DNA from: a candidate division FCPU426 bacterium | GTDB taxonomy: Bacteria > Oederibacteriota > Muellerivitia > Muellerivitales > Muellerivitaceae | Assembly: GCA_963771075.1 (NCBI GenBank) | Contig: CAVYSE010000018.1 | Coordinates: forward strand, 108,551 to 172,550 | Reading direction: 5' to 3' | Length of the DNA stretch: 64,000 nt | Shown here: positions 11,489-33,480 of the stretch, piece after piece | Layout: each line of letters begins with the position of its first letter | Numbering within the stretch: the first letter of the stretch is position 1 | Translations under genes and position numbers: made by a program | The notes under the pieces: generated by a model | Seen by the model: the letters and a program-made list of their open reading frames with translations, nothing else | What the model was told of the DNA's origin: nothing | Database searches by the model: none

Positions 11489-11968
11489 ATCGCCAAGACA
11501 CGAAGACACGAAGGAAATCCAAATGGATTTTGTTCAAACGGACAAAGCCATGATGAAAATAGACGATGATACGGAAAGAATCGCCAAGGAAATTGTCGAT
11601 TCGGCTTATCAAGTCCACAATCTTTTAGGCCCTGGCCTCTTAGAGAGTGCTTACGAAGTATGTCTGGCTCACGAATTAGAACTTAGGGGCTTAAAAATTG
11701 AACGCCAGGTGGAAGTGCCTTTTGAGTATAAAGGAATTCGTATAGACGCAGGATTTGTTGGTGGAAAAGCGAGTTATCGTGGAAGTTAAGGCGATGGAGG
11801 GTTTGCTTCCCGTTCACCGATATCAGTTGATCACTTATTTAAAGCTTTCAAAACACAATCTGGGTTTTCTTGTAAACTTTAATGAATCTGTCATCAAGAA
11901 TGGACTAAAACGAATTATTCTTTCAAAGTAATGATTCATCGTTTTTCGCGTCTTGGCGTCTTCGCGAT
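11489..11968. mobile_element. Inverted-repeat cassette copy a (cargo: frameshifted GxxExxY gene), inserted between pyrF and pyrE.
   Basis: Left end: atcgccaagacacgaagacacgaagg (11489-11514). Right end: ttcgcgtcttggcgtcttcgcgat (11945-11968). The two are imperfect reverse complements. Each terminus is 2-3 tandem CNCNAAGA octamers. The outer flanks (acttctaggatt / aaactttgaagt) extend the dyad. Confidence 0.7.
11523..11931 (+). pseudogene. GxxExxY family (PD-(D/E)XK-like, PDDEXK_3) protein with an apparent frameshift.
   Basis: Frame 1: [55 protein letters not shown], then a stop at 11789. The conserved C-terminal half, [57 protein letters not shown], continues in another frame to 11931. The shift is at ~11750-11765 (a T/G run). 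A full-length paralog is at 33007-33450. Confidence 0.75.
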
Positions 11969-11974
11969 TAAACT

Positions 11975-12574
11975 TTGAAGTTCGGGGGGAAAATGACGAA
12001 CGACGAAGTCCTGAAAATATTCGAGGAAACACACGCCCTCTTGAAGGGGCATTTCCGCCTTTCCTCGGGCCGCCACAGCGACCGGTATTTACAATGCGCC
12101 CTGGTGTTGCAATATCCCTGGCAGGCGGAGAAGCTAGGGCAAGCCCTCGCGGAAAAAGTCAAGGAATTGAAGCCCCAGGCGGTTCTTTCGCCCGCCATGG
12201 GCGGGCTTTTCGTGGGGCATGAACTGGCCCGCGCGCTCAAGGTCCGGTCGATCTTCACCGAACGCAACAAGGAAACCGACGCCATGGAACTCAAAAGGGG
12301 TTTTACCGTGGAAAAGGGCGAGAGGATCTTCACCGTCGAGGATATATTCACGACCGGGAAATCCGTCAAGGAATCCTACCAGGTGGTCCGCAATATGGGC
12401 GCCGAGGTGGTAGGCGTGGGATGCCTGATCGACCGCAGCGGCGGCGAAATTGCCTTTGACGTGCCGGTCCGTTCGCTGGCGTCCTTGAAGGTGGAAAGCT
12501 GGGAAGAGAAGGATTGCGCCCTTTGCAAACAGGGGATGCCGGTGGTGAAACCCGGTTCCCGGTCCAAATTCTAA
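11975..12574 (+). CDS. pyrE: Orotate phosphoribosyltransferase.
   Basis: LLKGHFRLSSGRHSDRYLQCALVLQYP plus the PRPP-binding loop IFTVEDIFTTGKSV. Confidence 0.88.
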   Translation: MKFGGKMTNDEVLKIFEETHALLKGHFRLSSGRHSDRYLQCALVLQYPWQAEKLGQALAEKVKELKPQAVLSPAMGGLFVGHELARALKVRSIFTERNKETDAMELKRGFTVEKGERIFTVEDIFTTGKSVKESYQVVRNMGAEVVGVGCLIDRSGGEIAFDVPVRSLASLKVESWEEKDCALCKQGMPVVKPGSRSKF

Positions 12575-12595
12575 GGAAAACGTCAACTTCAAGGA

Positions 12596-12730
12596 TTAGC
12601 GCCAAGACACGAAGAAGAGTAGGCATAAAATGAACGGGGTTAACCAATTAGGAGTGTAAAAGGAATAAGTCTTTGACTTTAGTGTTCGCACGAAGAACTT
12701 GTTTTCTTGGGGCCTTCGTGTCTTGGCGAT
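12596..12730. repeat. Cargo-less (MITE-like) copy b of the inverted-repeat cassette.
   Basis: Left end: ttagcgccaagacacgaagaag. Right end: cttggggccttcgtgtcttggcgat. The flanking aacttcaaggatt / ggatttgaagtt extend the inverted repeat. About 90 bp lie between the ends with no ORF. It starts ~20 nt after the pyrE stop. Confidence 0.65.
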
Positions 12731-12761
12731 GGATTTGAAGTTAATCGATAATGAGGTTTGA

Positions 12762-13046
12762 ATGCCCGAAAAGAAACCCCAACCTAAGACCGATTCCTCT
12801 CCCGCCGACCGAAACACGGTCCGGGAATATATCCAGGCGAACCTGCTGGTATGGGGTTTCCTGGTATTGCTGGGAATCATCGCCTTCTTCTTCGTGTGCG
12901 GGGGAGTTTGGGATGACGTGTCCGAGGGGACCCTGGAATTCCTTTTCGTGATCATGGGCGGCGGCTTTACCCTGGTATCCGCCTTGGACTATCTTTACGA
13001 CCGGAATTTCCGCGCCCAAGCCGCCAACGAGGAGGAACATTCTTGA
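12762..13046 (+). CDS. Small membrane protein (two predicted TM helices), function unknown.
   Basis: Hydrophobic stretches LLVWGFLVLLGIIAFFFVCGGV and LEFLFVIMGGGFTLVSAL. Its stop overlaps the next start (TTGA). Confidence 0.5.
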   Translation: MPEKKPQPKTDSSPADRNTVREYIQANLLVWGFLVLLGIIAFFFVCGGVWDDVSEGTLEFLFVIMGGGFTLVSALDYLYDRNFRAQAANEEEHS

Positions 13047-14104
13047 ACTCTTTCTTGAATAAAAGGATTGCGCTGTTTCTGGCCTGGACCCTCCTGTTTT
13101 CCCCCGGGATGACCGCCCTTTCCTTCGCCCAGGCGGCGAATGCCACGGGGGCGAATGCCATGGCGGCGAACACACCTTTGGCATCGTCGGCCAACGCGGC
13201 CGCGACCCCTTCGCCGGCCGACCCCGACGAGCTTTCCACGATCCAGCACCTGGCCCAAGCCGGTTATTTAGGCGATCAAAAGGCCAAATACCTTTCTGAA
13301 AACTTGACCGAGGACCAGATTACGGACGCGTTATTGGCCATTTATGAACAGCTTTCCGCCGTGGATTCCAAGACCCTATCCCCTGGAAACAAACAATATA
13401 CGCTGGATGATTTGCAGGCCCTCCAGGCGCTGGTCAAGGATAAGGCGGAGGATATCCGTGCCCGGAAGGTTTCCTCCTGGCGTTTTGATAACAAGATCCA
13501 GAAGATGATCGCGGCCCTCGGCGGAACCGCCCCTGCCCCGGCCAGTACGGCCGCGCCCCCGCCCACCGCGACTGTCCTTCCCGCAGCGCCCACCGCGACC
13601 CCTACCCCGGTCGTCACGCCCGGCCCTTCACGGCAGGAGTTCGAAAGTTTGAAATCCAACCTCCAGGATTTGGACCGGAAAACCCTGGACATCCAAAAGA
13701 GCTATGACCTGAAAGCCGATGAAATCGCCAAAAGCAACGATGAAATGAAGAAATCCAACGCGGAGGTCCGGGAACAGCTGGACCTGGTGAAAAACCTCAT
13801 CGACCGGGTCCAGGAAGACCTTCAAAAGACGGAAAACCGCCTGGAGCAGGTGAGCCAAAAGGCGGAGGAAAAGAACATCACGGACACGGAGCTGGAGCAG
13901 GAATTAACGGTCATGCACAAGGATATGAGGGATAATGTGCAGGATGTGAGCGTACTCAAGCAGGAAGTGGCGAAGTTGGATAAGAGCGGCGAGGTCAAGA
14001 GCGAGAACGTGCTGGACCAGGTCCTTGACTCGAAATGGCTCGCGGGCGGGGCCCTGGTGGTCGGGTTGGCCGCCTTGGTGGTGGGTTTAAGCAACCATAA
14101 GTAA
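13043..14104 (+). CDS. Secreted coiled-coil protein with a C-terminal membrane anchor, function unknown.
   Basis: Signal peptide (ALFLAWTLLFSPGMTALSFAQA), an Ala/Pro/Thr-rich linker, a long heptad-like charged region (QEFESLKSNLQDLDRKTLDIQKSYDLKADEIAKSNDEMKKSNAEVREQLDLVKNLIDRVQEDLQKTENRLEQVSQKAEEK) and a terminal TM (WLAGGALVVGLAALVVGL). Confidence 0.55.
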   Translation: MNSFLNKRIALFLAWTLLFSPGMTALSFAQAANATGANAMAANTPLASSANAAATPSPADPDELSTIQHLAQAGYLGDQKAKYLSENLTEDQITDALLAIYEQLSAVDSKTLSPGNKQYTLDDLQALQALVKDKAEDIRARKVSSWRFDNKIQKMIAALGGTAPAPASTAAPPPTATVLPAAPTATPTPVVTPGPSRQEFESLKSNLQDLDRKTLDIQKSYDLKADEIAKSNDEMKKSNAEVREQLDLVKNLIDRVQEDLQKTENRLEQVSQKAEEKNITDTELEQELTVMHKDMRDNVQDVSVLKQEVAKLDKSGEVKSENVLDQVLDSKWLAGGALVVGLAALVVGLSNHK

Positions 14105-14179
14105 ACCGGGGGTTGTTCTGGAACCGCCGGTAAGGTGGGGCGGGTAAATTTAAAAGAGTTTTGAATAAAGGAGCGGACC

Positions 14180-14830
14180 ATGTTCTTAGGACATTATGGG
14201 GTCGGGATGGCGGCGAAAAAGATCGCCCCAAAAACTTCCCTGGGCATTCTCCTGGCGGCGGCCCAGTGGCTGGACATTCTCTGGCCGCTTTTCCTGATCC
14301 TGGGCATCGAGCATGTACGCATCACGCCTAATTGGACCAAGCTCAGCCCGTTGGAGTTTTACGACTTTCCCATGTCCCACAGCCTCCTGATGGTCGGCTT
14401 TTGGGCCTTGCTATGGTGGCTGGTTTCCACGGCCCTTAAGATGAACTGGAAAGTCTCGCTGATCCTTCCGGGCCTGGTCGTGAGCCATTGGGTCTTGGAC
14501 CTGCTGGTCCACCGCCCGGACCTTCCGCTGACGCCGCGAAGCAGCACGGTGATGGGATTGGGATTGTGGAACTATCCCATCTGGACCATCAACCTCGAGT
14601 TCATCCTATTGATCGTCGGATTCGCCCTCTATATCGGCTGCACGGAGGCAAAAGATAGGATCGGTTCCATCGGTCCTTGGGTCTTGACCGGCTTTCTCGT
14701 GGCCGTCTATGTGGCCAGCCTGGTGTCCCCGCCGCCGCCCTCATCGGATTTCGTCGCCTGGATGGCCCTTTCCCTATGGGCGCTTTACCCCATCGCCCAT
14801 TGGATCGACCGGCACCGTAAGCCTGCCTGA
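14180..14830 (+). CDS. Polytopic membrane protein. It may be a YdjM/DUF457-like membrane hydrolase, but that assignment is not secure.
   Basis: Six or more hydrophobic segments, an N-terminal MFLGHYGVG and several conserved-looking His residues (EHV, MSHS, SHWVLDLLVHRPD). Confidence 0.45.
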   Translation: MFLGHYGVGMAAKKIAPKTSLGILLAAAQWLDILWPLFLILGIEHVRITPNWTKLSPLEFYDFPMSHSLLMVGFWALLWWLVSTALKMNWKVSLILPGLVVSHWVLDLLVHRPDLPLTPRSSTVMGLGLWNYPIWTINLEFILLIVGFALYIGCTEAKDRIGSIGPWVLTGFLVAVYVASLVSPPPPSSDFVAWMALSLWALYPIAHWIDRHRKPA

Positions 14831-14832
14831 AC

Positions 14833-15273
14833 ATGAAGCCCATTACGGTCCGGAAGGCCAACGATTCGGACGAAAGCGCCCTGGCGCTGGTATACCGGGC
14901 CGTCTTTTCCTCCCCCCCCTACCAGGAACCCTGGACCGACCACGCGGCACGGTTACGGGTGCGCCAGCTTCTCCAGGCCATCGACGGCATGGGTTGGGTC
15001 GTGACCCTTTACGGCCAGCCTGTAGGTTTTGCCTTCATTCAAATGAAAGAGGGATACAACGGCAGCTACGTGGAACTTTTAGAAACCGCGGTGCACCCCT
15101 ATCTTCAGGGCCAAGGAATGGGGAGCCTCCTGATGGGGGAAGTCCTGAAGTTCAAAAGGTCCAAGAAATTGAAAACCCTCTATGGGGTTTGTTTGAATCC
15201 AAAACTCGGAACCTTTTTCAAGAAATGCGGGTTTAAACTTTCAAAACGGGCAAGACTTTGGTCCAAACTTTGA
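14833..15273 (+). CDS. GNAT-family N-acetyltransferase.
   Basis: Acetyl-CoA-binding motif A-like LQGQGMGSLLMGEVL, the typical length (146 aa) and the terminal FFKKCGFK. Confidence 0.75.
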   Translation: MKPITVRKANDSDESALALVYRAVFSSPPYQEPWTDHAARLRVRQLLQAIDGMGWVVTLYGQPVGFAFIQMKEGYNGSYVELLETAVHPYLQGQGMGSLLMGEVLKFKRSKKLKTLYGVCLNPKLGTFFKKCGFKLSKRARLWSKL

Positions 15274-15435
15274 TGTTCGATGTGAAAATTGACACTTTTG
15301 AATTAAATCGATAGAAATTTAACGTTTAAACCCTTTTAAATAGCTAAAAACGTATCAAGACCCCCCGAAAACTTAGTTTTTGATGGTATGGAAAATGCTT
15401 TTCCTAAATGAAACGATTCTTTTCAAGGGGATAGC

Positions 15436-15579
15436 ATGGCTCGGGTTTGGATCCTACTTATGGGTTTGGTCTTAATGACTTTGGCTTTTGCTTGCGCTTC
15501 GCGAAGCCTGCAATCGCCGGTGAATCCCGAACAGGGCCTCACCCTCGTTCCCACCGCGACCTTGACGCCGACACAATAA
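15436..15579 (+). CDS. Small (47 aa) putative lipoprotein, not in the supplied ORF track.
   Basis: MARVWILLMGLVLMTLAFACASRSLQSPVNPEQGLTLVPTATLTPTQ. It has a signal peptide with lipobox LAFAC. It sits in an AT-rich intergenic region with a TTGACA-N17-TAGAAA promoter-like sequence at 15289-15317. Confidence 0.35.
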   Translation: MARVWILLMGLVLMTLAFACASRSLQSPVNPEQGLTLVPTATLTPTQ

Positions 15580-15600
15580 GACACTGATTCAAGCTGGCCT

Positions 15601-17337
15601 TCATTCAATCCTCAAACCTGCCGCTTTAACCTCCAACGTCAAACTTCTTTCTTTCGTGAGCGTCACCATTCCCATGGGTGCCCCGGGGATGCGCCTCACA
15701 TTTTTCTTTTCGGTGTAACTCACGGTCACCTTTTCCCCGGCCTTGGCCTTGCTGCGCGTGGCCGCGGCCTGGGCCGCCATATGGATGAGTTCAAGGGTGG
15801 GTACGGCCCCGCGCTGGAGGCGGCGGAGCAAAACATGGGAACCGGGCAAATCCCGCACATGGAACCAGAGGTCCTCCGGCTGGGCCAGTTGGAAGGTAAC
15901 GTAATCATTGGCGGCGGCGGAAGTGCCCGCGCAAAGCTCGAATTCCTTTCCGATTTTTTCCCGGAAAATATTGGGGGTCGGCACCTTTTCAATCCTGGGC
16001 TTGGCGGTTTTGAGCCTGACGGCCTTCTCGACCGGGAAGAGTTCCTGGTGGGCCTTCTTAATCTCCCGGGGGTCTTTGAGGGCGGGCAGGCTCCGCTGGG
16101 CCGATTTCAACTGCTCGATCCGGGTCTTGACCTCGTTTTCCCTTTTTTCAACCTGGGCCAGTCCCCTCGATCCCTTTTGGGCCTTCTTGAAATAACGCTG
16201 GGCGTTCAGGAGGGGAGTGGCTTCCGGGTCGAGGGGAACGCGTTGAAGCTCGGGGTTTCCCCGGATCACGTCCTCCAAGACCGTCTCGGACTGGTGGATC
16301 TTGATCTTGTGAAGCTGGGCCATGATCAGTCTCGCCCCACCATTGGTATTGGTCGGACCGTTCGGCTTCGGCCGGTCTTTCTTCAGCTTTTCCATGATCC
16401 GTTTCTCATGCTTGAGCGCCTTGGCGATCTCGCTTTCCAAGGTGGTTTTTTGGGAAAGCCAATGGCGGTGCTGGTTGTCCAATTGGAACAACCGGGAGAG
16501 GGCCTGATAGGCGGTGGGGAAGGTTTCCCTTTCCTTGGCCGTGGGAATGGACTCGTGGAAGAGGCGCAGGACCGGGGGCGGGCCCAGGAACAGGATGAAA
16601 TCATGCCAAGGGCCCCTCCAGCGCAAGCTTTTTCACCCGGTCCCATTCGGTAAAGGCGCCGTCGCTAAAGCTTTCCAGGTAGACCGGAAAGCTCAGGGTC
16701 GGTGCCCCGCAAATCGGTTTTCAGCCAAGGTCCGAGGGGCGGACGGCCCGCCATGGGCCCAGAGAGCTTGGAGGGACGATGGGTCCAAATCCCAAAGGTT
16801 GGGCTTGTCCCCGGGCTGGGGGGCGGGGGAATAGGGGACCTGGGGAAGCACCGGCCTTTCCGAGTCGTTGCGGTAACGCAGGGCGCTGATGATCCCGCCG
16901 TCGCCGCCGATCAGGATCAAATTCGGATACTTGGGGAGCCCCTCGAAGATCAGCTTGAACGGACCGTCGTGGGTCTTCAAAAGAATCTGGATCACCCTTT
17001 GGCCGGGTTCCTGGACCACGTCCAGGACCTGGGCGTAATCCAGGTTCTTGCGCAGGGACCTGCAAAAATTGGGAGGCTTGTCCAGGGCGGGAGGTTTTTG
17101 ATCGGTCAGGAAGAGGATCGGCTTCAGGGCCATCAGGGCCGTGACCAGGTAATAGGTTCTGCCGGTCGGGGTGGTAAAGGGACAACTCCACATGGTCGGG
17201 GGAGGACTGGGAGACGTGGGAGACCCTTGAACCGGGTAATAGGGATTTCAGTTCCCGGGCCAGCAGGGTGGCGAGTAGGGGTGTCAGGTTTGGGTCCTCA
17301 AGGTTGGCATTGGGTTGAATTTTACCATTTTGTTTGA
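15601..17337 (-). pseudogene. rqcH: RqcH/FbpA (NFACT-family, ribosome quality control) homolog broken by at least three frameshifts.
   Basis: C-terminal piece (15601-16626) has the NFACT-R/DUF814 hallmark EDLWFHVRDLPGSHVLLR. A middle piece (16693-17193) has NFACT-N-like TGRTYYLVTALMALKPILFLTD...KLIFEGLPKYPNLILI. The N-terminal LTPLLATLLARELKSLLPGSRVSHVSQSSPDHVELSLY lies in a third frame (17150-17310). A further segment, LSFPVYLESFSDGAFTEWDRVKKLALEG, is in yet another frame at ~16620-16700. Confidence 0.75.
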
Positions 17338-17419
17338 AGGGTAGGGCCCTTGTTTGGGGGGGCCGGGGGGAATAAACTGAGGAAGATACAGGGTGATCGC
17401 AAGGCTCAAGGGGACGCGG

Positions 17420-19100
17420 ATGGATCAGCCATGGCTATCTTCTTATGACCGGGGAGTGCCAAAAACCCTTGAATACCCGGAATGCACCCTTCCGGACCTG
17501 CTCCAACAAACCGCCGAAAAGTACCCCCGCCATTCCGCGATCCATTATTTCGGTTCGACCCTCACCTACCGGGAACTCAACCAAAAAGTCGACCAATTCG
17601 CCAATCTTTTGATCCGGGAGGGCGTCCAACCCGGCGACCGGGTGGCCCTTTACCTGCCCAACTGCCCGCCTTGTGTCATCGCCTTTTTCGGGGCCATGCG
17701 GGCCGGGGCGGTGGTGACGCAATTGAACCCCCTCTACTCCAAAACCGAGACCGTCCACCAGCTGAAAGATTCGGGGGCGAGGGTGGTGGTGTCGCTGGAC
17801 CGGTTCGTGCCCATCCTCGATTCGATCATTGAGGAATGCGGCCTTCGAAAAATTTGGCTGACCCGCATCAACGATTATTTCGCCAAACCCCTGAAGTGGT
17901 TTTATCCCCTGCGCGCGATGGCGCAAAAGTCCTGGGTGCGTTGGCCGGATAAGGCCATTTACCGAAGTTTCGTGAAGGACCTGGATTCGGCTCTCGGCGC
18001 CAGTCCATGCCCTGTCCCTGGCGAAGATGGACGACACGGCCATCCTGCAATATACCGGCGGAACCACCGGGGTTTCCAAGGGCGTGATCCTGACCCAGCG
18101 GAACCTGGTGGCCAACGCTTACCAGTGCAAGTTGTGGTTCCCGGGCATTCCCGACGGGAGCGCGGTCTTTTTGATCGCGGTGCCGATTTTCCATTGCTAC
18201 GGCTTGACCGCGGGCATGAACTTCGCGCTTTTCAAAGCCTCGCCCATGGTGCTCCTGCCCAAGTTCGACGTAACGCAGGTGCTGGAGGCCATCCAAAAAT
18301 ACAAGGTGGCGGTTTTCCCGGGTGTGCAGGCCATGTACAACGCCATCAACCAGCATCCCCGGACCTCCCATTACGACCTTCGAAGCATCGTGGCCTGCCT
18401 TTCCGGCGCCGGGCCCCTGCACCTGGAGGTCCAGAAGAAATTCGAGGAGCTGACGGGCGGGCGTGTCTCGGAAGGCTACGGGCTGACCGAGGCATCCCCC
18501 GTCACGCATTGCAACCCCATTTTTGGAAAACGCAAGATCGGGTGCATCGGCGTGCCCTTTCCGGGTACGGATTGCAAGATCGTGGACTTGGAGACGGGCA
18601 AGAAGACCCTGGGCGCGGGGGAGGTCGGCGAGATTATCGTCAAAGGCCCGCAGGTCATGCAGGGCTACTGGAACCACCCGGAAGAAACCGCCAAGGTATT
18701 GAAGGACGGATGGCTTTATACGGGGGACATCGGGACCATGGACGCCGACGGGTTCTTTTCCGTCGTGGACCGCAAGAAGGATATGGTCAAGGTCGGGGGT
18801 GAAAGTGTATTCCCGCGCGAGGTGGAGGAAGTTTTATTCCAGCACCCCAAAGTCCTGGATTGCGTGGTGGCGGGCGTGCCGGACGCGGCCATGGTGCACA
18901 AGGTGAAGGCCTACATCGTTTTGAAACCGGGCCAATCGGCCGATCCCCAGGACATCATCGATTTTTGCAAGGGGCAAATGGCGAAATACAAGGTCCCCAA
19001 GGACGTGGAGTTCAGGGAGTCTTTGCCCAAGAACATGATCGGGAAGATGCTGAGGCGGTTGCTGGTGGAAGAAGAAAAGGAAAAACTAAAGAAGATTTAA
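17420..19100 (+). pseudogene. fadD: Long-chain fatty acid--CoA ligase (AMP-binding, FadD-like) with one apparent frameshift.
   Basis: N-terminal frame: MDQPWLSSYDRGVPKTLEYPE...YRELNQKVDQFANLLIREGVQPGDRVALYLPNCP. The AMP-binding motif ILQYTGGTTGVSKGVILTQRNL and the rest (to KMLRRLL) are in the frame of ORF 18027-19100. That second frame is open from 17976, so the shift lies at ~17976-18005. Confidence 0.8.
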
Positions 19101-19572
19101 CCGCCAAGACGCAAAGACGCCAAGGGAACCTTTGGAGGATTTATGGTAGAGAATTTTCCATATTGTTTATCGGGGGTTGATGATTCGTTATTTGAAGGAA
19201 AGATTAAGAATTTTGCCTCGGGTGATAGGTTGCGCTTCAAAAGTATTGTTATTTATCGAGATAAGAATTGTATTTATGTGACTACCGAGGGAAATACGAC
19301 TCCTGAGAATGCAATCGACGAAACGAAAGCAATTTTTGATGTTGCTCAAAAACAATTGGAAGAAATAACAAATCGGAGCTTTGACTTCAAAAAGTTGATA
19401 GATGGTGTTTCAGTTGAGTTTTTACTGTTTGGCCCAATAGGTAATTTTCTTGCCATTATGAAAGACGGTGAGATGGATTTTGATATAGGCCGATATTTGC
19501 AAATGGCGAACCGGGAAAGTTTCGGGAGATGAAATAATTTAGTAGTTCTTGGCGGCTTGGCGGTGAAAAAAG
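19098..19572. mobile_element. Inverted-repeat cassette copy c (cargo: AT-rich 129-aa orphan ORF).
   Basis: Left end: aaccgccaagacgcaaagacgccaagg (19098-19124), which begins within the fadD stop codon. Right end: ttcttggcggcttggcggtgaaaaaag (19547-19572). Confidence 0.7.
19143..19532 (+). CDS. Hypothetical protein (cassette cargo), no recognisable family.
   Basis: GGAGG lies 5-6 nt upstream of the ATG. By eye the ORF is markedly more AT-rich than its neighbours. Confidence 0.55.
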   Translation: MVENFPYCLSGVDDSLFEGKIKNFASGDRLRFKSIVIYRDKNCIYVTTEGNTTPENAIDETKAIFDVAQKQLEEITNRSFDFKKLIDGVSVEFLLFGPIGNFLAIMKDGEMDFDIGRYLQMANRESFGR

Positions 19573-19834
19573 ATTTAGGGGGCTAATATCAAATTCGCCA
19601 TTTTTTCCCTGACCTCGATGTGGGAGAGGGTTTGGCGGGTATCGGCCTGTTGAAGACCCTTTTCGATTTTCGCCAGGAACAACAATCGCTCCATGGCGTC
19701 TTCAATGGAAGCGTTTTTCGGAAGGGCTTGAACAGCTTTGAGTGTTTTTTGTTTCGCGGTCATAAAAGAAGAATAACAGCATTGATGGGCTGGTTCAATA
19801 TTTCGGTTTTCTTCGCGTCTTCGCGGTAAAAAAG
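19573..19834. mobile_element. Second cassette unit d, abutting copy c. It ends with another right-type terminus.
   Basis: Right end: ttcttcgcgtcttcgcggtaaaaaag (19809-19834). The sequence following both right ends is duplicated (aaaaaagatttaggggg vs aaaaaagcctttaggggg). No separate left end is visible between c and d. Confidence 0.55.
19575..19763 (-). CDS. Small (62 aa) antitoxin-like protein (cassette cargo).
   Basis: MTAKQKTLKAVQALPKNASIEDAMERLLFLAKIEKGLQQADTRQTLSHIEVREKMANLILAP. The LPxxxSxED...L....KI..G.......SHxEV pattern resembles small addiction-module-component proteins. The longer listed ORF (to 20024) would overlap the thiolase start, so the internal Met was chosen. No toxin partner is adjacent. 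Confidence 0.4.
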   Translation of the reverse strand: MTAKQKTLKAVQALPKNASIEDAMERLLFLAKIEKGLQQADTRQTLSHIEVREKMANLILAP

Positions 19835-21043: not shown

Positions 21044-21107
21044 TAGTCGACCGTTCGCAGTCGGCAGTCGACGGTTTAACTGTGAGCTGTCGATGGTCGA
21101 CCGTGGA
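21044..21107. repeat. Post-stop-codon short repeat, family 2 (GTCGAC/GCTAAC-motif type), copy 1.
   Basis: tagtcgaccgttcgcagtcggcagtcgacggtttaactgtgagctgtcgatggtcgaccgtgg. It shares cgcagtcgRcag and gtcgacgg with the copy after groEL. The palindromic GTCGAC cores allow hairpins. Confidence 0.35.
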
Positions 21108-21144
21108 CTAATAACCTGTTAATCGTGTGATGGGGGAGGAAGAA

Positions 21145-22365: not shown

Positions 22366-22436
22366 AGCCATTAGCTCTTGGACATTAGCTTTTAGCTAAC
22401 GGCCAACCGCTGAGGGCTAACAGCTGAGGCCGGCGA
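22366..22436. repeat. Post-stop-codon short repeat, family 2, copy 2.
   Basis: gccattagctcttggacattagcttttagctaacggccaaccgctgagggctaacagctgaggccgg. Internal direct repeats are present (cattagct x2, gctaac x2, gctgagg x2). It shares agctaacgg with copy 3. Confidence 0.35.
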
Positions 22437-23229: not shown

Positions 23230-23240
23230 CAAAAATTTTT

Positions 23241-23346
23241 TTACCGCGAAGTCGCGAAGAAAAGCTAAACACCCAGATTGGAACCCCAAGATGAATTTGA
23301 TAAGTATTGAACGACATTTTGAGGTATTTTTCGCGTCTTCGCGATG
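23241..23346. repeat. Cargo-less (MITE-like) copy e of the inverted-repeat cassette.
   Basis: Left end: ttaccgcgaagtcgcgaagaaaag. Right end: tttttcgcgtcttcgcgatgg. About 60 bp lie between them with no ORF. It begins ~12 nt after the hydratase stop. Confidence 0.6.
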
Positions 23347-23400
23347 GGATAGGTTTTTGTTAGACCTTTTTAAGATGGGGAGAGAAAACGAAGGGAACCC

Positions 23401-24270: not shown

Positions 24271-24286
24271 ACAAACTCCATCAAAA

Positions 24287-24423
24287 TTTTCCACCCCGAA
24301 GGGCCGAAGTTAAATCAATGTTAAGCCCGATTTAAGGTATTTCTTCCCGTGGTTGCCCCAAAGGGTGAGTTTTTTCAATTTGTTATGACCCTTAATGCCA
24401 TCCTCGTGTCTTCGCGGTGGAAA
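24287..24423. repeat. Degenerate cargo-less copy f of the inverted-repeat cassette.
   Basis: Left end: ttttccaccccgaagggccgaag. Right end: cctcgtgtcttcgcggtggaaa. It begins ~17 nt after the patatin stop. Confidence 0.5.
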
Positions 24424-24459
24424 TCCTTGTTTTTCCTTATCCTTTGACGGTTCGCTCCC

Positions 24460-24488
24460 TTGACTCCCTTGGGGCCCGTGCTTATATT
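24460..24488 (+). promoter_or_regulatory. Sigma70-type promoter of groESL.
   Basis: TTGACT (24460-24465), a 17-nt spacer and TATATT (24483-24488), placed directly upstream of the CIRCE element. Confidence 0.7.
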
Positions 24489-24497
24489 AACGCCCTC

Positions 24498-24524
24498 TTA
24501 GCACTCGTTCTAATTGAGTGCTAA
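24498..24524 (+). promoter_or_regulatory. CIRCE operator (HrcA-binding inverted repeat).
   Basis: A perfect TTAGCACTC-N9-GAGTGCTAA lies ~90 nt upstream of groES. Confidence 0.92.
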
Positions 24525-24613
24525 ATCGACTCATTCGGTTTTTAACAACAAGTTTCATGTCCCGCGGGCCCCGTTCTAAAGGGCCCGGGATTCAAATCAC
24601 AGGAGGTTGGTTG

Positions 24614-26645: not shown

Positions 26646-26660
26646 AAAGGCTAAATCAAA

Positions 26661-26695
26661 AGCCCTCGGCGAAGACGCCGGGGGCTTTTTGCTTT
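26661..26695 (+). terminator. Rho-independent terminator after groEL.
   Basis: Stem agccc(t)cggcg / cgccggggct with an aaga loop, followed by tttttgcttt. Confidence 0.7.
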
Positions 26696-27297: not shown

Positions 27298-27313
27298 ACC
27301 CTCGAGGAAACCC

Positions 27314-27643
27314 TTGAAAGAACTCATCAGCGAACAACAGGCCGACTGGATCATCCTGGGTTTATCGGTCGCCATCGCGCTGGGTGGTTTGGTGTTCGGC
27401 TTCCTCTTCTCCAAAACCAAAAAGGGCGCTGAAAAAAAGGCCCATTGGGCCCAGGCCTTGCTGGTGACCCTCATCGGGTTGACCGTCTGGGGCTTTTGGA
27501 ACCTTTACAATTCCATCGAGAATTACTACGGCCTGGATTCCCTGAAGGCCTTGGGCATCAATTTTTGTATCGCGGTCGGTTTGGGCCTTTTGTTTTTAGC
27601 CCTATTCTGGTTTGTCCCTTCCTGGGCCTCGAAATCCAAGTAG
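27314..27643 (+). CDS. Membrane protein (3 TM), function unknown.
   Basis: TTG start and three hydrophobic helices (WIILGLSVAIALGGLVFGFLF, ALLVTLIGLTVWGFW, FCIAVGLGLLFLALFWFV). Confidence 0.45.
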   Translation: MKELISEQQADWIILGLSVAIALGGLVFGFLFSKTKKGAEKKAHWAQALLVTLIGLTVWGFWNLYNSIENYYGLDSLKALGINFCIAVGLGLLFLALFWFVPSWASKSK

Positions 27644-27644
27644 T

Positions 27645-27787
27645 TTTCACCGCGAAGAAAGACTTAAACCATCTATGTTTCAACACCAAGACACCCGGCC
27701 TTTTGAAACACAATCATTGGGTAATGGCCCGGAAACCAAACCATTAACCCGGCTATTCCCGATGCCCTCGCGCTTTCACGGTGAAAA
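27645..27787. repeat. Degenerate cargo-less copy g of the inverted-repeat cassette.
   Basis: Left end: ttttcaccgcgaagaaagac (starts 2 nt after the stop at 27643). Right end: ctcgcgctttcacggtgaaaa. Confidence 0.45.
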
Positions 27788-27848
27788 ATGCGTCTTGTTT
27801 GGGACTTTTCACCAAAACTGCCACCGGGCAGAGTGCGTCTAAACGATC

Positions 27849-28739: not shown

Positions 28740-29836
28740 TGATCCCCGGGAACTTCCATTTCGCCGACCCCCAATGGCTATACCTGGCCTTCGCGCTTCC
28801 CCTGGTGCCCCTGGCTTTTTACCTTTCCGCCCGGCTTAAGCCTTCCACCCTTTACCTTGGAAACCCCCGGCTCGTCGCGGCCGCGCCCAGCTTCTGGTCC
28901 GGGGTTTGGTTTCCCTGGCTCCTGCGGCTGTTGGTTCTTCTGCTTTGCATCGTGGCCGCCGCCAAGCCCCAGGCCGGCCAAAAAAAAGTGGAGCAGAAAA
29001 AACAAGTGACCGACCTTTTCGTGGCCTTCGACGTTTCCGGCTCCATGCTCACGGCCGATCTGAAACCCAACCGGGTTACCGCCGCCAAGAAGCTTCTTTC
29101 GGAGTTCCTGGACAAGGTTCAGGATGTGCGGGTGGGACTGACCGTTTTCGCCAGCATCAGTTTTACCCAGTGCCCCCTGACCACCGACATGGCCATCGTT
29201 AAAAAACTACTGGCCAACGTGGATGTCTATTCGGTCAAGCTGGATGGGACCGCCATCGGGGACGCGCTCGTCTCAAGCTTGAATCGGATGCAACAAGGCA
29301 TTGGAAAGATAGGCGGCGACGAAGAAACCAAACCCACACTGATTGGAAAATTACTGGCCGAACCCACTCCAAGCGGCGAAGCCGCGCCCAAGGACACCCA
29401 GGCGATCCTTCTTCTCACGGACGGGGGCAACAACGCCGGGATCGTGGACCCCCTTCAAGCGGCCCGGATCCTAGCCTCCAAGGGCGTGAAGGTTTACGCC
29501 ATCGGGGTGGGTGGAAATGGTTCAGCCAACCTGTTTTACCAGGGACGGACTTACGCCCAAACCGATCAATATGGAAACCCGCTTCACGACGAAGGGGTGG
29601 ACAAGGTGCTTTTAGGTGAAATCGCACGCATTACGGGGGGAAGGGTTTATTTTGCCCAGAACAACCAAGCCCTCGAGAGCGTCTTAAAAGACATAGCCCA
29701 GCTTCAAAAAAGAGAGGTTTCCACCGTAACCAGCTGGCAATACGAGGAACTGGGTTTTTGGTTCCTATTGGCCGCTTTTGCCCTATTGCTCCTGGACTTG
29801 GTTTTGGAAACCACCCTATTGAGGACCTTGCCATGA
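28739..29836 (+). CDS. batA: VWA-domain membrane protein, BatA-like.
   Basis: N-terminal TM helices, then the VWA MIDAS motif VAFDVSGSM, TAIGDAL and LLLTDGGNN, and a C-terminal TM. Confidence 0.8.
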   Translation: MIPGNFHFADPQWLYLAFALPLVPLAFYLSARLKPSTLYLGNPRLVAAAPSFWSGVWFPWLLRLLVLLLCIVAAAKPQAGQKKVEQKKQVTDLFVAFDVSGSMLTADLKPNRVTAAKKLLSEFLDKVQDVRVGLTVFASISFTQCPLTTDMAIVKKLLANVDVYSVKLDGTAIGDALVSSLNRMQQGIGKIGGDEETKPTLIGKLLAEPTPSGEAAPKDTQAILLLTDGGNNAGIVDPLQAARILASKGVKVYAIGVGGNGSANLFYQGRTYAQTDQYGNPLHDEGVDKVLLGEIARITGGRVYFAQNNQALESVLKDIAQLQKREVSTVTSWQYEELGFWFLLAAFALLLLDLVLETTLLRTLP

Positions 29837-30837
29837 CAGGATTGAATATCGATTTTGGCAACCCCAACGCTTTGTTTCCGCTCTTAACAGTCCTTCTTTT
29901 GATGCTGGCTTGGGGAGCCTGGACCCTTTGGAAGGATCGCCGGGACCTGGATTATTTGGGTGAGCAAAACCTGGTCTGGTCCCCGCTGAGGGTTTGGGCC
30001 CGCCGGGCCGTGAAGGGAACCTTGGCCTTGGTCGCGCTTGTCTTTTTGTTTTTGGGAGCCGCCCAGCTTCAGGGCAAACCGGTTCCCGAAGAACTGAATA
30101 TGAGCGGTGTGGACGTCATGATCGTACTGGATGTCTCGAAAAGCATGTTGTCCCAAGACATCCTTCCGAACCGGCTCACGGCCGCCAAGCGGGCACTTTT
30201 CAATTGGATTTCCAACCGGCAGGGGGACCGGGTAGGCCTAGTCATCTTCGCCGGGGAATCCCTGGTTCAAGTGCCGCTGACCATGGATTTAAACGCCGTC
30301 CAGTTGGTCTTGGTCAAGGCGGATCCGGACGAGGTGGACAGGGGAGGAACGGATATTGGCGAGGGAATCCAGACCGCCCTGGATTCACTGGATAAAGAGG
30401 AAGATAAAAAAAGAGGGAAGGCCATTCTGCTGATGACCGACGGGGAGATAACGGAGGGTTCTGCCATCCTACCGAAGGTTCTTGAGCGGGCTGCGCAAAT
30501 GAAGGTTCCAATCGTAACGGTAGGCATGGGCACCCCCCAGGGAAGGCCGATCCCGGACGGAACGGCCTTTTGGGGCGAGATGACTTATAAGAGAGACGCT
30601 GGAGGGTCGGTTCACATCAGTCGGCTGGATGAGACGACGCTTCGCCATATTGCCGACTCGACCTGGGGTGAATATATCCCGGGCGATACCGAACAGAACC
30701 TCAAGTCGATCAATTCGACGCTGGATAAGCTTCAAAAAACACTGATGAAGGGCGAGGGCGGCATGAAGAGGGAAGAACTTTCCCCCCGGATGGCCCTGGG
30801 GGCCGCCTTTTCGCTTTTCCTGGCTTCGGTGTTATGA
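29833..30837 (+). CDS. batB: VWA-domain membrane protein, BatB-like.
   Basis: The ATG at 29833 overlaps the batA stop (ATGA). MIDAS VLDVSKSM, GTDIGEGI and ILLMTDGE. C-terminal TM. Confidence 0.8.
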   Translation: MTGLNIDFGNPNALFPLLTVLLLMLAWGAWTLWKDRRDLDYLGEQNLVWSPLRVWARRAVKGTLALVALVFLFLGAAQLQGKPVPEELNMSGVDVMIVLDVSKSMLSQDILPNRLTAAKRALFNWISNRQGDRVGLVIFAGESLVQVPLTMDLNAVQLVLVKADPDEVDRGGTDIGEGIQTALDSLDKEEDKKRGKAILLMTDGEITEGSAILPKVLERAAQMKVPIVTVGMGTPQGRPIPDGTAFWGEMTYKRDAGGSVHISRLDETTLRHIADSTWGEYIPGDTEQNLKSINSTLDKLQKTLMKGEGGMKREELSPRMALGAAFSLFLASVL

Positions 30838-31913
30838 AGATGGGCATGGAACCTATGGAAACAAATCAAAATCCAACGCAAAACCACAAAGAGCCAACGA
30901 AAGGCGTAATCTTTTTGGGGAAACCAAACACGAATAAAACCCGATTGCTATGCCCGGAAAAATCACTATTTTCCCAGTGGCTTGCAGTTTTATTGCTGGC
31001 GATTTTGCCGGGGATGAGCCATGCCTTCAGCCTATCGCCGGGCCGGGACGCCTATGAGGGCAAGGACTACCTGCAGGCCGAAAAGATTTTCGGGGAAGAG
31101 GCCCAGAAGAATAAAAATGATTGGGCCGCCGCCTATGGATGGGGAAACGCCTTGTACCAGGAAGGGAAATATTCAGAGGCCCAAAAGGCATATGAACAGT
31201 CCTTGGAGCATAAACCTGACATGGAATCGGGCTGGTACAACCTGGGCAACAGCTATTTTCAGCAACAAAGGTATAAAGACGCCATTGAGGCATACAAAAA
31301 GACTCTTCAGCTGGACCCTAAAGACAGCGACGCAAAACATAACCTGGAATTGGCGGAAAAACTGATGAAGGAGAGTCCCAAATCGGACAAGAGCGACGAA
31401 AAACGCAAGGAAGAACAACAAACTCCCAGCCCGACCCCCACCCAACCTCCAGGCCAACAAAACAACCAGCAGGGCGGGAAGTCCGATCAACAGCAAAACG
31501 ACTCAAACTCAAAGAATCCAAACAATTCCCAAAACCCTTCAAATCAAAAGAACCAAAATCAAAATCAGGGGCAACAGCAAAAGCCGGCCGCTTCCAAACA
31601 ACAACAAAACCAACAGCAGGCCGAACAACAACGCCAGCAGCAGGCTGCCCAACAACGCCAGGCGGACCAGCAAAGGGCCGAGGAGGCGAAGAAACAGATG
31701 GGCATGTCTGATGAGCAGGTGAAGCAGTTGATGTCCCAGCTTCAAAATCGGGAAGCCCAGGCCCAGCGTTTTTATTCGCCCCATCCGGACCGGGACAGCA
31801 AAAAAGCGCAGGATAACTTCTGGAATTTTCTTCCCAGGGAAAATAGCGAGTTCATGAAGCGTTTTTTTGGACAGCCATCCAACGATAAAAACCAGCCTGC
31901 GGAGGATTGGTGA
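30834..31913 (+). CDS. TPR-repeat protein, BatC-like, with a long Gln/Asn-rich low-complexity region.
   Basis: ATGA overlap with batB. TPR units: YLQAEKIFGEEAQ, AAYGWGNALYQEGKYSEAQKAYEQSL, GWYNLGNSYFQQQRYKDAIEAYKKTLQLDP. A Q/N tract spans ~31410-31700. Confidence 0.7.
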   Translation: MKMGMEPMETNQNPTQNHKEPTKGVIFLGKPNTNKTRLLCPEKSLFSQWLAVLLLAILPGMSHAFSLSPGRDAYEGKDYLQAEKIFGEEAQKNKNDWAAAYGWGNALYQEGKYSEAQKAYEQSLEHKPDMESGWYNLGNSYFQQQRYKDAIEAYKKTLQLDPKDSDAKHNLELAEKLMKESPKSDKSDEKRKEEQQTPSPTPTQPPGQQNNQQGGKSDQQQNDSNSKNPNNSQNPSNQKNQNQNQGQQQKPAASKQQQNQQQAEQQRQQQAAQQRQADQQRAEEAKKQMGMSDEQVKQLMSQLQNREAQAQRFYSPHPDRDSKKAQDNFWNFLPRENSEFMKRFFGQPSNDKNQPAEDW

Positions 31914-32014
31914 GCCGGTGGCCATTTTGCCTGCCGTTCGGGTTAGAATACGCGGGCTCGAGGGGCTGGCGGCATTGACGAAAGCGGAAGTCAAGAACAT
32001 AAGGAAGGGAAAGC

Positions 32015-33010
32015 ATGAAACCGATTGAAACGAGAAAAAACAGGCCTTGGACCCTCTGGGTCCTGGCCTTTCTACTGGCCGCTCCCCTGGCATCCCAAAC
32101 GAATAACAGCGGGGAAGAAGTGGGCCTGCGAATGGACGTGGATAAAAGGCAGGTGGAGGTGGGCGATACACTTTCCCTCACGATCGAATTCAAGCAATTG
32201 ATGGTGGGAGGAAGCAATGTATCCGCCCAGCCTAATTTCCCGACCCCGGAGCTTTTTCAGGAAGGCAGTAGCTTTAATTCCACGCAAGTCACCATCGTGA
32301 ACCAAAAGACGGCCCAGACGACCACGACCCACATGAACCTGGTGGCGGTTAAACCCGGAAGCGAAACCTTGGGGCCCGCCAGCGTCATTTTTCAGGACCC
32401 TTCCGGGAAAAGGCAGGAGATCCGATCCAATGTGATCAACGTGACGGTCACCGAAAAAAAGCCGTTTTCCCTTTTTGGAGGGTCCAAACCGACTTCCCTG
32501 CCGGCGGTGAACCCGGCTCCGGCCCAGGCTCCCGCGGATGAGGGCTTAAGGGACCTGAAACCATTGTTGCCGGATCCCATCCTCTTCTTGTTGAAGCTGT
32601 TAATTTGGATCGCCATTCTCGTCTTAGTTGGAGTCTTGGTTTGGAGGATCACGAAACCCAAAAAATCCGCCGTTAAAGGTCCCCCCCCCATCGGGGAGGA
32701 AAAGCGCTTGAGGGATATCTGGAAAAAACTTTCCGACGAGGACCTTTCCGCGGAGATTTTCTGCCGGTCCCTGTCTTCCCTGGTCCGCGAGTGCCTCCAA
32801 TACCATTTTGAGTTCGACGCGGTGGATCTTACGACAGAGGAAATATTCCGGGAATTGAAGAAACATGAATTAACCTCCAAGGAGATGGAGGCCGTTGAAA
32901 AGTGCCTGAAGGCCTGCGACCGGGTGCTTTACGCCGATGGGAACCTGACGGGAAGGGACGCCCTGCGTGCCCTTGCCTCGAACCTGCTGCCGAAGGTGTC
33001 AAACAATTGA
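32015..33010 (+). CDS. BatD-like (oxygen-tolerance family) membrane-anchored protein.
   Basis: Signal peptide, a beta-rich ectodomain (DKRQVEVGDTLSLTIEF...VAVKPGSETLGPASVIFQDPSGKRQEIRSNVINVTV), a single TM (LLIWIAILVLVGVLVW) and a cytoplasmic tail. Its position after batC is as in Bat operons. Confidence 0.55.
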   Translation: MKPIETRKNRPWTLWVLAFLLAAPLASQTNNSGEEVGLRMDVDKRQVEVGDTLSLTIEFKQLMVGGSNVSAQPNFPTPELFQEGSSFNSTQVTIVNQKTAQTTTTHMNLVAVKPGSETLGPASVIFQDPSGKRQEIRSNVINVTVTEKKPFSLFGGSKPTSLPAVNPAPAQAPADEGLRDLKPLLPDPILFLLKLLIWIAILVLVGVLVWRITKPKKSAVKGPPPIGEEKRLRDIWKKLSDEDLSAEIFCRSLSSLVRECLQYHFEFDAVDLTTEEIFRELKKHELTSKEMEAVEKCLKACDRVLYADGNLTGRDALRALASNLLPKVSNN

Positions 33011-33450
33011 ACCGCGAAGACGCGAAGGTAAACCCGGTAAAGAAATTCGGGAAAGATGATATATCGATCGAGAAGAATGATATCGCCAGAACGGTTGTTG
33101 ACGCAGCTTTCGCGGTGCATCGGGAAATGGGCCCCGGATTGTTGGAAAGTATTTACGAGTCATGCTTGGTTAAAGAGCTGCAAAAACGGAATGTTGGATT
33201 CGAACGGCAAAAATGTATTCCAATTCACTATGCCGGTGAATTATTAGATGAAAAGTTTCGATTGGATTTGTTGGTTGAAGAAAAAATAATTGTTGAAATA
33301 AAAGCTGTAGAAGAACTATTGCCTATTCATGAGGCGCAGGTTTTGACTTATCTCAAACTTATAGGGTGCGAGATTGGTTTTTTAATCAATTTTAACGTCC
33401 GTTTCATCAAGGATGGCATCCGGCGGATTGTTTTGTCAAAAAAACACTAA
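33007..33450 (+). CDS. GxxExxY family (PD-(D/E)XK-like, PDDEXK_3) protein.
   Basis: VVDAAFAVHREMGPGLLESIYESCLVKELQKRNVGFERQKCIPIHYAGELLDEKFRLDLLVEEKIIVEIKAVEELLPIHEAQVLTYLKLIGCEIGFLINFN. The only in-frame canonical start upstream of the conserved core is the TTG at 33007, inside the left repeat. The start is therefore uncertain, and a 5' frameshift is an alternative. Confidence 0.75.
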   Translation: MNREDAKVNPVKKFGKDDISIEKNDIARTVVDAAFAVHREMGPGLLESIYESCLVKELQKRNVGFERQKCIPIHYAGELLDEKFRLDLLVEEKIIVEIKAVEELLPIHEAQVLTYLKLIGCEIGFLINFNVRFIKDGIRRIVLSKKH

Positions 33451-33480
33451 AAGACGTTCTTCGCGTCTTCGCGGTGAAAA
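33009..33480. mobile_element. Inverted-repeat cassette copy h (cargo: full-length GxxExxY gene), inserted between batD and moxR.
   Basis: Left end: gaaccgcgaagacgcgaagg (33009-33028), overlapping the batD stop. Right end: gttcttcgcgtcttcgcggtgaaaa (33456-33480). The core is a perfect 16-nt reverse complement. Confidence 0.75.

Follow-up and report, generated by a model that had tools for sequence, protein, structure and literature searches.

Operon-borne cassettes with inverted heptamer-array arms and GxxExxY nuclease-like genes: a candidate family of selfish elements spanning phyla

Results

We analyzed a 64-kb stretch of DNA from a candidate division FCPU426 bacterium (contig CAVYSE010000018.1 of assembly GCA_963771075.1, positions 108,551–172,550, forward strand; hereafter the window, numbered from its first nucleotide), in which inverted-repeat cassettes, two of them carrying a gene of the GxxExxY family, lie between genes next to stop codons. 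We incline, with slightly more belief than doubt, to the reading that eight members of a widespread, phylum-spanning family of selfish cassettes lie in the window, a family resembling the REPIN-RAYT systems or MITEs (miniature inverted-repeat transposable elements). This reading builds on the anatomy of the cassettes, their insertion polymorphism, the association of gene with arms, the co-orientation with host genes, the existence of deletion derivatives, and the purifying selection on the gene. The full-length element would measure about 460–480 bp, with one GxxExxY gene between two inverted arms made of heptamer arrays, and copies that lost the gene or had it replaced would persist as hairpin-forming empty cassettes, in the manner of MITEs or REPINs.

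Eight cassettes with related arms in the window

The arm motif CGCGAAGACGCGAAG, with up to 3 mismatches, has 17 matches in the window versus 1.9 ± 1.2 in dinucleotide-preserving shuffles (maximum 5), and a degenerate form has 16 matches versus 0.34 expected; all true matches are confined to 11.4–33.5 kb. Reading of the sequence and an inverted-repeat scan delineated seven two-armed cassettes whose right arm is the reverse complement of the left, with full ends TTTTCACC and GGTGAAAA. Whichever strand is folded, their terminal stems are more stable than those of shuffled controls (z between −1.7 and −5.8). All copies use the AAG class of repeat unit described below, and the GC content of the interiors is 35–46%, compared with 54.8% for the window. 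The original prediction had counted at least eight copies, which holds for the seven two-armed ones, the span 19573–19834 having only a right arm. Its tentative, degenerate ninth copy, at 35505–35600, contains a left-arm-like string but was rejected because it folds no better than shuffles (z +0.86).

Cassette 8 (33007–33482, + strand), at the batD/moxR junction, is intact. Its perfect 17-nt arms (33011–33027 and 33459–33475) are flanked by TGAACC and GGTGAAAA, with a core span of 33009–33480, and its GxxExxY gene, called from a TTG at 33007 that overlaps the batD stop codon TGA as TTGA, extends to 33450 and retains the D...ExK catalytic motif. The encoded protein scores 148 bits against PF13366 (Pfam cut-off 22) and 150.5 bits against TIGR04256 (NCBIfam cut-off 35). 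Cassette 1 (11485–11968, + strand) occupies the pyrF/pyrE junction, with a left arm at 11489–11514 (ATCGCCAAGACACGAAGACACGAAGG), whose final unit (CGAAGGA) ends 8 nt upstream of an ATG, and a right arm at 11942–11968. It encloses a GxxExxY pseudogene (11523–11931, + strand) with a frameshift near 11750–11790, the two pieces of which score 62.8 and 57.4 bits (PF13366/TIGR04256); the frameshift is also present in an independent read-level assembly (L121). Profile matches thus bear out the two GxxExxY cargo genes predicted earlier, one of them frameshifted. The genes of cassettes 1 and 8 are ~50% identical to each other. The pyrF stop codon TAG (11482–11484) lies within a 10-nt stretch, TCTAGGATTA, common to the left flank of cassette 2.

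Two further copies contain other open reading frames. Cassette 3 (19098–19569, + strand), directly 3′ of fadD, has a left arm of three units (19098–19124), whose end TTAACC overlaps the fadD stop TAA, and a right arm of two units (19548–19569); its cargo is a 129-aa ORF (19143–19532, + strand) of no known family, with only 2 full-length homologue clusters among 1.84 billion representative proteins. Cassette 4 (19570–19834) is a half cassette with a 63-aa ORF on the minus strand (19578–19766) and a right arm alone (19809–19834); this arm and ~19 nt of the flank downstream of it (AAAAAAGNNTTTAGGGGGC) repeat, in direct orientation, how cassette 3 ends. Because the 129-aa and 63-aa ORFs match no family in Pfam, NCBIfam, or PHROGs, the label "antitoxin-like" given earlier to one ORF is unconfirmed. 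As the original prediction had noted, no transposase was found in any window copy, here in profile searches. One homologue of the 129-aa cargo (L214, 600–1261; 43% identity) lies directly 3′ of a fadD-like C-terminus (...EEEKAKLKN-stop), amid only degenerate arm-like strings; since it also follows a fadD-like gene, the same rare gene occupies the same junction in a second lineage. The other (L215, 540–1700) belongs to an array of small genes, each preceded by a ~25-nt repeat, GGTTCGCAAAATCGTTGAATCCGGGGA, which is possibly another cassette-array system.

The remaining four cassettes, all on the + strand, contain no ORF, and pairwise comparison within the window found no mutual homology between their interiors beyond the arms. 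Cassette 2, at the junction of pyrE and the next gene, was predicted at 12596–12730; its inverted repeat, ~30 nt long, in fact spans 12585–12741, with core arms (12600–12614 and 12714–12728) that are 100% complementary and fold z values of −3.0 and −5.8. Cassette 5 (23234–23352; core span 23241–23346) lies between the enoyl-CoA hydratase and patatin genes, with arms ACCGCGAAGTCGCGAAG and CTTCGCGTCTTCGCGAT (z −4.0 and −3.9). Cassette 6 (24283–24427; core span 24287–24423), which follows the patatin gene and precedes the promoter and CIRCE element of groES, has degenerate arms TTTTCCACCCCGAAGGGCCGAAG and CCTCGTGTCTTCGCGGTGGAAA (z −1.7 and −3.3). Cassette 7 (27644–27790; core span 27645–27787), 3′ of the gene ending at 27643 and starting 1 nt past its stop, also has degenerate arms, TTTTCACCGCGAAG and CGCGCTTTCACGGTGAAAAA (z −3.8 and −5.1).

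Cassette-free junctions in related genomes

Relatives were fetched via homologues of pyrE and of the VWA gene of the bat operon. Contigs 99.3–99.8% identical to the window carry the same cassettes, and relatives at 72–80% nucleotide identity keep the gene order with short, cassette-free spacers at six junctions. These spacers measure 51–63 nt between pyrF and pyrE (unless the genes overlap), 7–17 nt between pyrE and the next gene, 15–34 nt between fadD and the thiolase gene, 4–40 nt between the hydratase and patatin genes (L131, L133, L124), ~52 nt between gene X and the DUF58 gene, the site of cassette 7 (L131, L132, L133), and 17–18 nt between batD and moxR. The site of cassette 1 is empty in L122, L124, L126, and L130. 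The closest relative, L132, has an orthologous GxxExxY cassette at batD-moxR with ends as in the window, and L131 and L133 have none there. In L124 and L125, the fadD-thiolase junction holds an empty hairpin of a different unit variant (CACAGAG type), CCGCAGAGGTCACGGAGGGCACAGGG...CTCTGTGCCCTCTGTGGTGAAA, with a z of −9.1.

Because relatives lack cassettes at the same gene junctions, the cassettes are, by this sequence comparison, insertions with presence/absence polymorphism and not conserved regulatory hairpins. The proposal of a mobile or once-mobile family is thereby upheld, together with the occurrence of copies in many genomes and phyla. As relatives are polymorphic, copies occur in many phyla, and the stems surpass shuffles, the cassettes are neither filled at all orthologous sites and absent elsewhere nor bounded by arms that pair no better than shuffled sequence. 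Between cassette 8 and its L132 orthologue, the cargo has a dN/dS of 0.09 at a dS of ~1.6, compared with 0.10 for the neighboring VWA gene; the low ratio at high dS indicates a functional gene long kept at one site. In an all-against-all comparison of the fetched loci for filled/empty pairs, only unrelated MITEs were polymorphic between near-identical loci. One is a 161-nt MITE in L124 (5195–5355; terminal inverted repeat GTAGTGACTCAGTTTGA), absent from the 98–99% identical L130; further MITE-like insertions are polymorphic between Microcoleus loci (L002/L018, L034/L074, and L016/L088).

Arms frame most GxxExxY genes across phyla

The exact 17-mer arm ACCGCGAAGACGCGAAG occurs at at least 120 loci of a 596-Gb collection, for which ~70 single chance matches are estimated. 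The matches listed come from Cyanobacteria, Planctomycetota, Acidobacteriota, Chloroflexota, Myxococcota, Nitrospirota, Verrucomicrobiota, and other phyla; at 32 listed loci a plus arm is followed by a minus arm within 2.5 kb, mostly within ~500 nt, and several of these pairs enclose a GxxExxY gene. The association was then read in the other direction, from 80 metagenome GxxExxY genes chosen by protein similarity alone (47–60% identity), 75 of which had usable flanks. With an array defined as at least two units matching C[AG]CN[AG]AG and both sides counted in inverted orientation, arrays flank the gene on both sides in 47/75 loci, on one side in 20/75, and on neither in 8/75, and control windows in the same loci give 0/780 two-sided arrays. 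The link between the cassettes and their nuclease cargo thus appears much stronger than the original prediction could know. Since this architecture surrounds most GxxExxY genes across many phyla, the family, with more than 7900 cluster representatives at E ≤ 1e-10 among at most 8000 candidates listed, probably marks an undescribed kind of mobile element. Viral contigs yielded 4 relatives in 2.9 million, 1 of them with typical arms. Viruses were rejected as vehicles of the cassettes, relatives being almost absent from viral contigs; L217–L219, which are large viral contigs, carry more distant PD-(D/E)XK relatives of 37–40% identity flanked by AT-rich repeats of another kind, direct and not inverted.

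It is quite improbable, in our judgment, that the cassettes are passive non-autonomous elements whose ends are used by an unrelated transposase or recombinase encoded elsewhere, with GxxExxY as the commonest passenger, for example, an addiction or defense gene. The missing transposase would fit, as would the possibility of other cargo between the same arms, and site-specific recombination of cassettes is brought to mind by cassette 4 and by the tandem arrays, whose junctions are repeated. Against this, the gene-arm association spans many phyla and unit variants, cargo other than GxxExxY is rare, and the protein clade co-varies with the unit type (see below), which is unexpected for a passenger of diverse host-specific enzymes.

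Across all fetched DNA, arm-to-arm distances are bimodal, with 92 cases at ≤150 nt and 53 at 300–500 nt, nearly all of the latter containing GxxExxY. The locus L163 has three tandem cassettes, two of which retain only the first ~25 nt of the ORF, one of these with the last ~50 nt in addition; from their sequences, the full and short copies appear to stand in the relationship of autonomous element to MITE, the encoded protein being a nuclease with a putative transposase role. L180 has at least 6 tandem copies. In both arrays, 10–15 nt from the left flank recur at each junction, the stop codon of the host gene among them; these repeats and the shared end of cassettes 3 and 4 may equally reflect tandem duplication, long target duplications, or site-specific recombination. 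In L066 (4712–4959), a CGCAGAG-type empty cassette is nested in the loop of a CGCGAAG-type cassette.

Nesting and the sharp gene-sized mode of the length distribution would also fit homing-type spread, in which the nuclease would cut empty cassettes or cognate arrays and recombinational repair from a filled copy would insert the gene, the arms serving as portable target and homology and reaching new sites by other means. PD-(D/E)XK homing endonucleases exist, one of them (I-Bth0305I) is among the weak structural matches of the protein, one and the same genome holds empty as well as filled cassettes that share their arms, and the same arms enclose different cargo. We nevertheless consider homing unlikely: in the window, the interiors of the empty cassettes are unrelated, so that these are not simply filled ones minus the gene, the arm homology available for repair is just 25–35 bp and imperfect, and the empty copies of L163 are deletion derivatives of the full copy, not virgin targets.

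Heptamer units, caps, and the question of RNA pairing

The strict octamer of the original prediction gives way to a heptamer, C-R-C-N-R-A-G, present in 2–4 copies per arm (about three at GxxExxY loci) and separated by spacers of 1–2 nt, hence a period of 8–9. The outer end of each arm bears a T-K-M-A-C cap, at which conservation begins sharply and symmetrically at both ends. Unit types seen across elements include CGCAGAG, CACAGAG, CACGAAG, CACAAAG, CACGGAG, and CGCGAAG, among others. Within an element, position 2 of the unit is 94% uniform and position 5 97% uniform, while both are ~50/50 across elements; position 4 is freely variable. Paired units of opposing arms are 93% identical, whereas the inter-unit spacers differ between arms in 54/81 cases. 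The cap string TTTTCACC recurs 17 nt 3′ of cassette 7 (27804–27811 compared with 27645–27652), in seemingly native sequence, and several cassette-free junctions (L122, L126, L131) begin stop-TTTCAC, stop-TCAC, or stop-ACCGCG. Such cap-like strings at native or empty junctions could reflect target preference, microhomology, or old footprints.

On either strand, the arms read as a T-run, a stem, and an A-run, the T and A runs lengthening the stem, and a stem will form in any transcript carrying both arms. The terminator-like structures proposed earlier were not found: a scan of 11.0–30.9 kb, the range of cassettes 1 to 7, gave no terminator-like site on the arms, which do not combine the GC-rich stem, short loop, and U-tract of intrinsic terminators. 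Rfam gave no relevant family in the window up to E = 5, its only match at the gathering threshold being one tRNA. Among arm mismatches on the sense strand, G·U is not in excess over A·C (17 versus 24, p = 0.35). As this bias is absent and the spacers are mostly unpaired between arms, selection seems to favor the repeat units over RNA pairing. The uniformity of units within an arm, which pairing does not need, would fit iterated recognition sites or concerted copying of units better.

These observations bear on a different explanation, that the cassettes are RNA elements serving the host, their stems acting as processing sites for RNase III or another enzyme, as stabilizers, or as devices bringing stop and start codons into proximity, with a cellular role for GxxExxY and the polymorphism reflecting gain and loss of regulatory modules. 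The sense-oriented placement in operons directly after stop codons, the stable predicted stems, and the long retention of the batD cassette at a dN/dS of 0.09 all agree with it, as does the parallel with rRNA intervening sequences, in which RNase III cuts stems of 28 bp (PMC4990558). Yet the arms show neither the G·U bias nor the complementary spacers of a selected RNA helix, their uniform units are superfluous for pairing, close relatives have no cassettes at these junctions, and no Rfam family or terminator signature was found, so that we regard a host-serving RNA role as improbable.

A predicted minimal Cas4-like nuclease

The D, E, and K of the D...ExK motif, the core of PD-(D/E)XK nucleases, are invariant or nearly so in two GxxExxY alignments. 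A search of the PDB by sequence gave no match for the protein, and an AlphaFold model based on 46 sequences (pLDDT 94.9) has as its best PDB match Cas4 SSO0001 (4ic1; probability 1.0, TM 0.51–0.57, 26% identity), followed by lambda exonuclease and then RecE; splicing endonucleases and the homing endonuclease I-Bth0305I are weak structural matches. The PD-(D/E)XK-like fold assigned earlier to GxxExxY agrees with both motif and model, and according to the model the ~125-aa protein is a minimal Cas4/RecB-like PD-(D/E)XK nuclease with the fold of restriction endonucleases.

Protein similarity follows the unit type of the surrounding arms, 0/2000 permutations reaching the observed value. AAG units accompany the protein clade ...VVDAA.KVH...LGFLIN, and GAG units the clade ...IIGAAIEVH...VGLLIN. 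The strongest residue-unit associations (0.64–0.75 bit) fall on alignment columns 30, 31, 35, 39, and 126, and the spacing of the first four, near the start of the conserved domain, would fit one face of an α-helix.

Placement next to stop codons in operons

The left arms in the window begin between an overlap with a + strand stop codon and 21 nt past it, close to the 0–20 nt predicted. Counted from the stop codon, the gap is 4 nt for pyrF, 10–21 nt for pyrE, 11 nt for the enoyl-CoA hydratase gene, 16 nt for the patatin gene, and 1 nt for the gene that ends at 27643; the fadD TAA and the batD TGA are overlapped and sit inside the cap (TTAACC and TGAACC, respectively). Pfam places pyrF, an AMP-binding acyl-CoA ligase, a thiolase, 3-hydroxyacyl-CoA dehydrogenase, enoyl-CoA hydratase, patatin, BatD, and a MoxR ATPase among the flanking genes. 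BatD ends ...LLPKVSNN-stop in the window and L132 versus ...LLPKIQ-stop in the cassette-free L131, and PyrF is 1–2 residues shorter in the window than in relatives; from these C-termini, the element itself sometimes seems to be the source of the host stop codon. The ribosome-binding sites downstream of the cassettes are kept.

The same placement is seen at the GxxExxY loci, where, taking the nuclease gene as the sense strand, the upstream neighbor is co-oriented in 31/35 cases and the downstream neighbor in 31/37. The first unit lies at a median of ~20 nt past the upstream stop, which the T-K-M-A-C cap abuts or overlaps in 7/31 cases. The elements, oriented like the operon, occupy the short interval that separates a stop codon from the ribosome-binding site that follows; this would leave the host genes intact and allow GxxExxY to be expressed by read-through transcription of the host operon.

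Other features of the window

The fadD-like acyl-CoA ligase gene upstream of cassette 3 is split into the frames 17393–18802 and 18027–19100, one covering Pfam AMP-binding positions 1–99 and the other 162–384; this is a frameshift or an assembly error. Two further intergenic hairpins in the same β-oxidation operon, at 21053–21108 (GTCGAC-type tandem units, z −3.4; kept in L131, absent from L133 and L124) and at 22366–22418 (TTAGCT-type tandem units, z −1.4), may be further families of unit-built hairpins. Upstream of groES, at 24460–24525, a σ70-like promoter (TTGACT-17-TATATT) precedes a CIRCE-like inverted repeat, TTAGCACTC-N9-GAGTGCTAA, and a strong intrinsic terminator lies 3′ of groEL at 26658–26689, both regions being conserved in relatives. 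A 1875-aa ORF (32–5659) has long Thr/Pro-rich repeats of the TPTxTDT type and accounts for a strong anomaly of GC and AT skew at 3–5 kb.

Discussion

The closest functional analogue of the cassettes is REPIN-RAYT and the closest architectural analogue the 23S rRNA intervening sequence, and they belong to neither. The REP/REPIN-RAYT systems, reportedly described by Nunvar and colleagues in 2010 and by Bertels and Rainey in 2011, likewise combine an enzyme gene between inverted short repeats with many gene-less inverted doublets in extragenic space, long-term and largely vertical inheritance, an enzyme under purifying selection, and hairpins just 3′ of genes. The enzyme there is a Y1/HUH (IS200/IS605-like) transposase, whereas here it is a PD-(D/E)XK nuclease: profile searches of the window gave no Y1_Tnp or IS200-like match, and the flanked gene is PF13366 and not a RAYT. 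The cassettes also have heptamer arrays in place of single GTAG-type palindromes, share the same arm sequence across phyla, and lie inside operons in co-orientation.

Bacterial MITEs such as the Correia/nemis elements of Neisseria and ERIC are co-transcribed with neighboring genes. The cassettes resemble them in that both are short, non-autonomous, and located at gene ends, bear terminal inverted repeats, are polymorphic for presence or absence, include derivatives of a longer element by internal deletion, and form stems in mRNA; they differ in having no target-site duplication found and no DDE transposase partner, in a cross-phylum distribution rather than one within a genus, and in their iterated-heptamer ends. 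I-Ssp6803I and I-Bth0305I are free-standing or intron-borne PD-(D/E)XK homing endonucleases; they too are small nuclease genes between or within conserved genes, without disruption, whose kind of spread could use host repair. No intron or intein context exists here, and since there are many host junctions per genome, any target must lie in the portable arms and not in a host gene. Cas4 (SSO0001) has the D...ExK nuclease core in common with GxxExxY, but at ~200 aa it is larger than the ~125-aa protein, which has no CRISPR context and in which the four-cysteine Fe-S motif is not obvious on inspection of the alignments (one invariant Cys). Integron cassettes carry attC sites with R and L boxes (GTTRRRY) and are arrayed next to intI/attI. 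Small promoter-less, co-oriented ORFs with a structured repeat and tandem arrays (L163, L180, cassettes 3 and 4) recall them, whereas two inverted arms per ORF instead of one attC, a scatter over housekeeping operons, an arm profile with no visible GTTRRRY core, and the lack of an integrase or attI set the cassettes apart.

The 23S rRNA intervening sequence is exemplified by a 444-nt element with a 28-bp stem and a small ORF (PMC4990558). Those with an S23p ORF, in Coxiella and Leptospira, share with the cassettes a length of ~430–480 nt, one small ORF, a terminal stem of 25–30 bp, a sporadic distribution suggesting horizontal transfer, and toleration by the host, whose RNA still functions (PMC4990558). 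The cassettes reside in protein-coding operons, in a window without rRNA, and not in 23S rRNA helices 25 or 45, and encode a nuclease between repeat-array arms rather than a four-helix-bundle protein; excision by RNase III is a feature of the intervening sequences. The earlier statement that rRNA intervening sequences carry related small genes is true of the four-helix-bundle S23p family (PMC4990558) and was not confirmed for GxxExxY.

In the scheme we prefer, that of a selfish cassette family, the nuclease would bind the heptamer arrays as iterons and drive the spread or maintenance of the elements by cutting at or between the arms, host repair or recombination finishing the process; the arms would additionally form stems in operon transcripts. 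The cassettes may be mobilized in trans by the nuclease, as suggested before.

Several observations weigh against this scheme. No direct repeat marks a target-site duplication at the flanks of the single cassettes, the spacers of relatives being too diverged to fix the boundaries, and the terminal tetramers, inspected by eye, fit neither a target-site duplication nor a strict inverted-repeat model consistently. There is no sign of recent transposition in the source genome: the copies share arms only, the GxxExxY genes have diverged to ~50% identity, and strains carry the same cassettes. The batD cassette has been retained at one site over a dS > 1 under strong purifying selection, a history that resembles that of a long-term resident or a domesticated element more than that of an active parasite. 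Neither strand transfer nor ligation is an obvious activity for a nuclease of 125 aa, a minority of GxxExxY genes (8/75) have no detectable arms, and non-GxxExxY cargo and the one-armed cassette 4 are unexplained. That protein clade and unit type go together hints at specific recognition but could equally result from co-inheritance. A domesticated role, or one that benefits the host, would be compatible with the long vertical retention under purifying selection.

A bolder proposal, which we hold only tentatively, is that GxxExxY (TIGR04256/PF13366) as a whole, a family of unexplained multi-copy genes that number in the thousands and occur in 10 or more bacterial phyla, is the enzyme of an undescribed class of mobile element, in which a Cas4-like nuclease would read inverted CRCNRAG arrays, a single helix would set the choice between AAG and GAG, insertion would occur precisely at operon stop codons, and hairpin relics would be left behind all over intergenic space. 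Within interspersed-repeat and mobile-cassette systems, the enzyme type and the end architecture are unprecedented. No description of the cassettes was found in open-access full texts and preprints, arm sequences included; subscription journals lay outside the search, and a prior description is possible.

If the mobile-element reading is true, it would give a biological role to a very large and widespread protein family of unknown function, and the few proteins that maintain interspersed repeats in bacteria would be joined by an enzyme of a new type. Also explained would be a common source of intergenic hairpins, and of N-terminal ORF extensions that are spurious, in genomes of cyanobacteria, planctomycetes, acidobacteria, and others. 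Practical uses may exist for so small a nuclease if its heptamer recognition is as simple and re-codable (AAG and GAG classes) as it appears. Finally, it is unusual for an element to live by inserting exactly at operon stop codons without causing polarity, and this raises questions on read-through expression, mRNA processing, and translational coupling.

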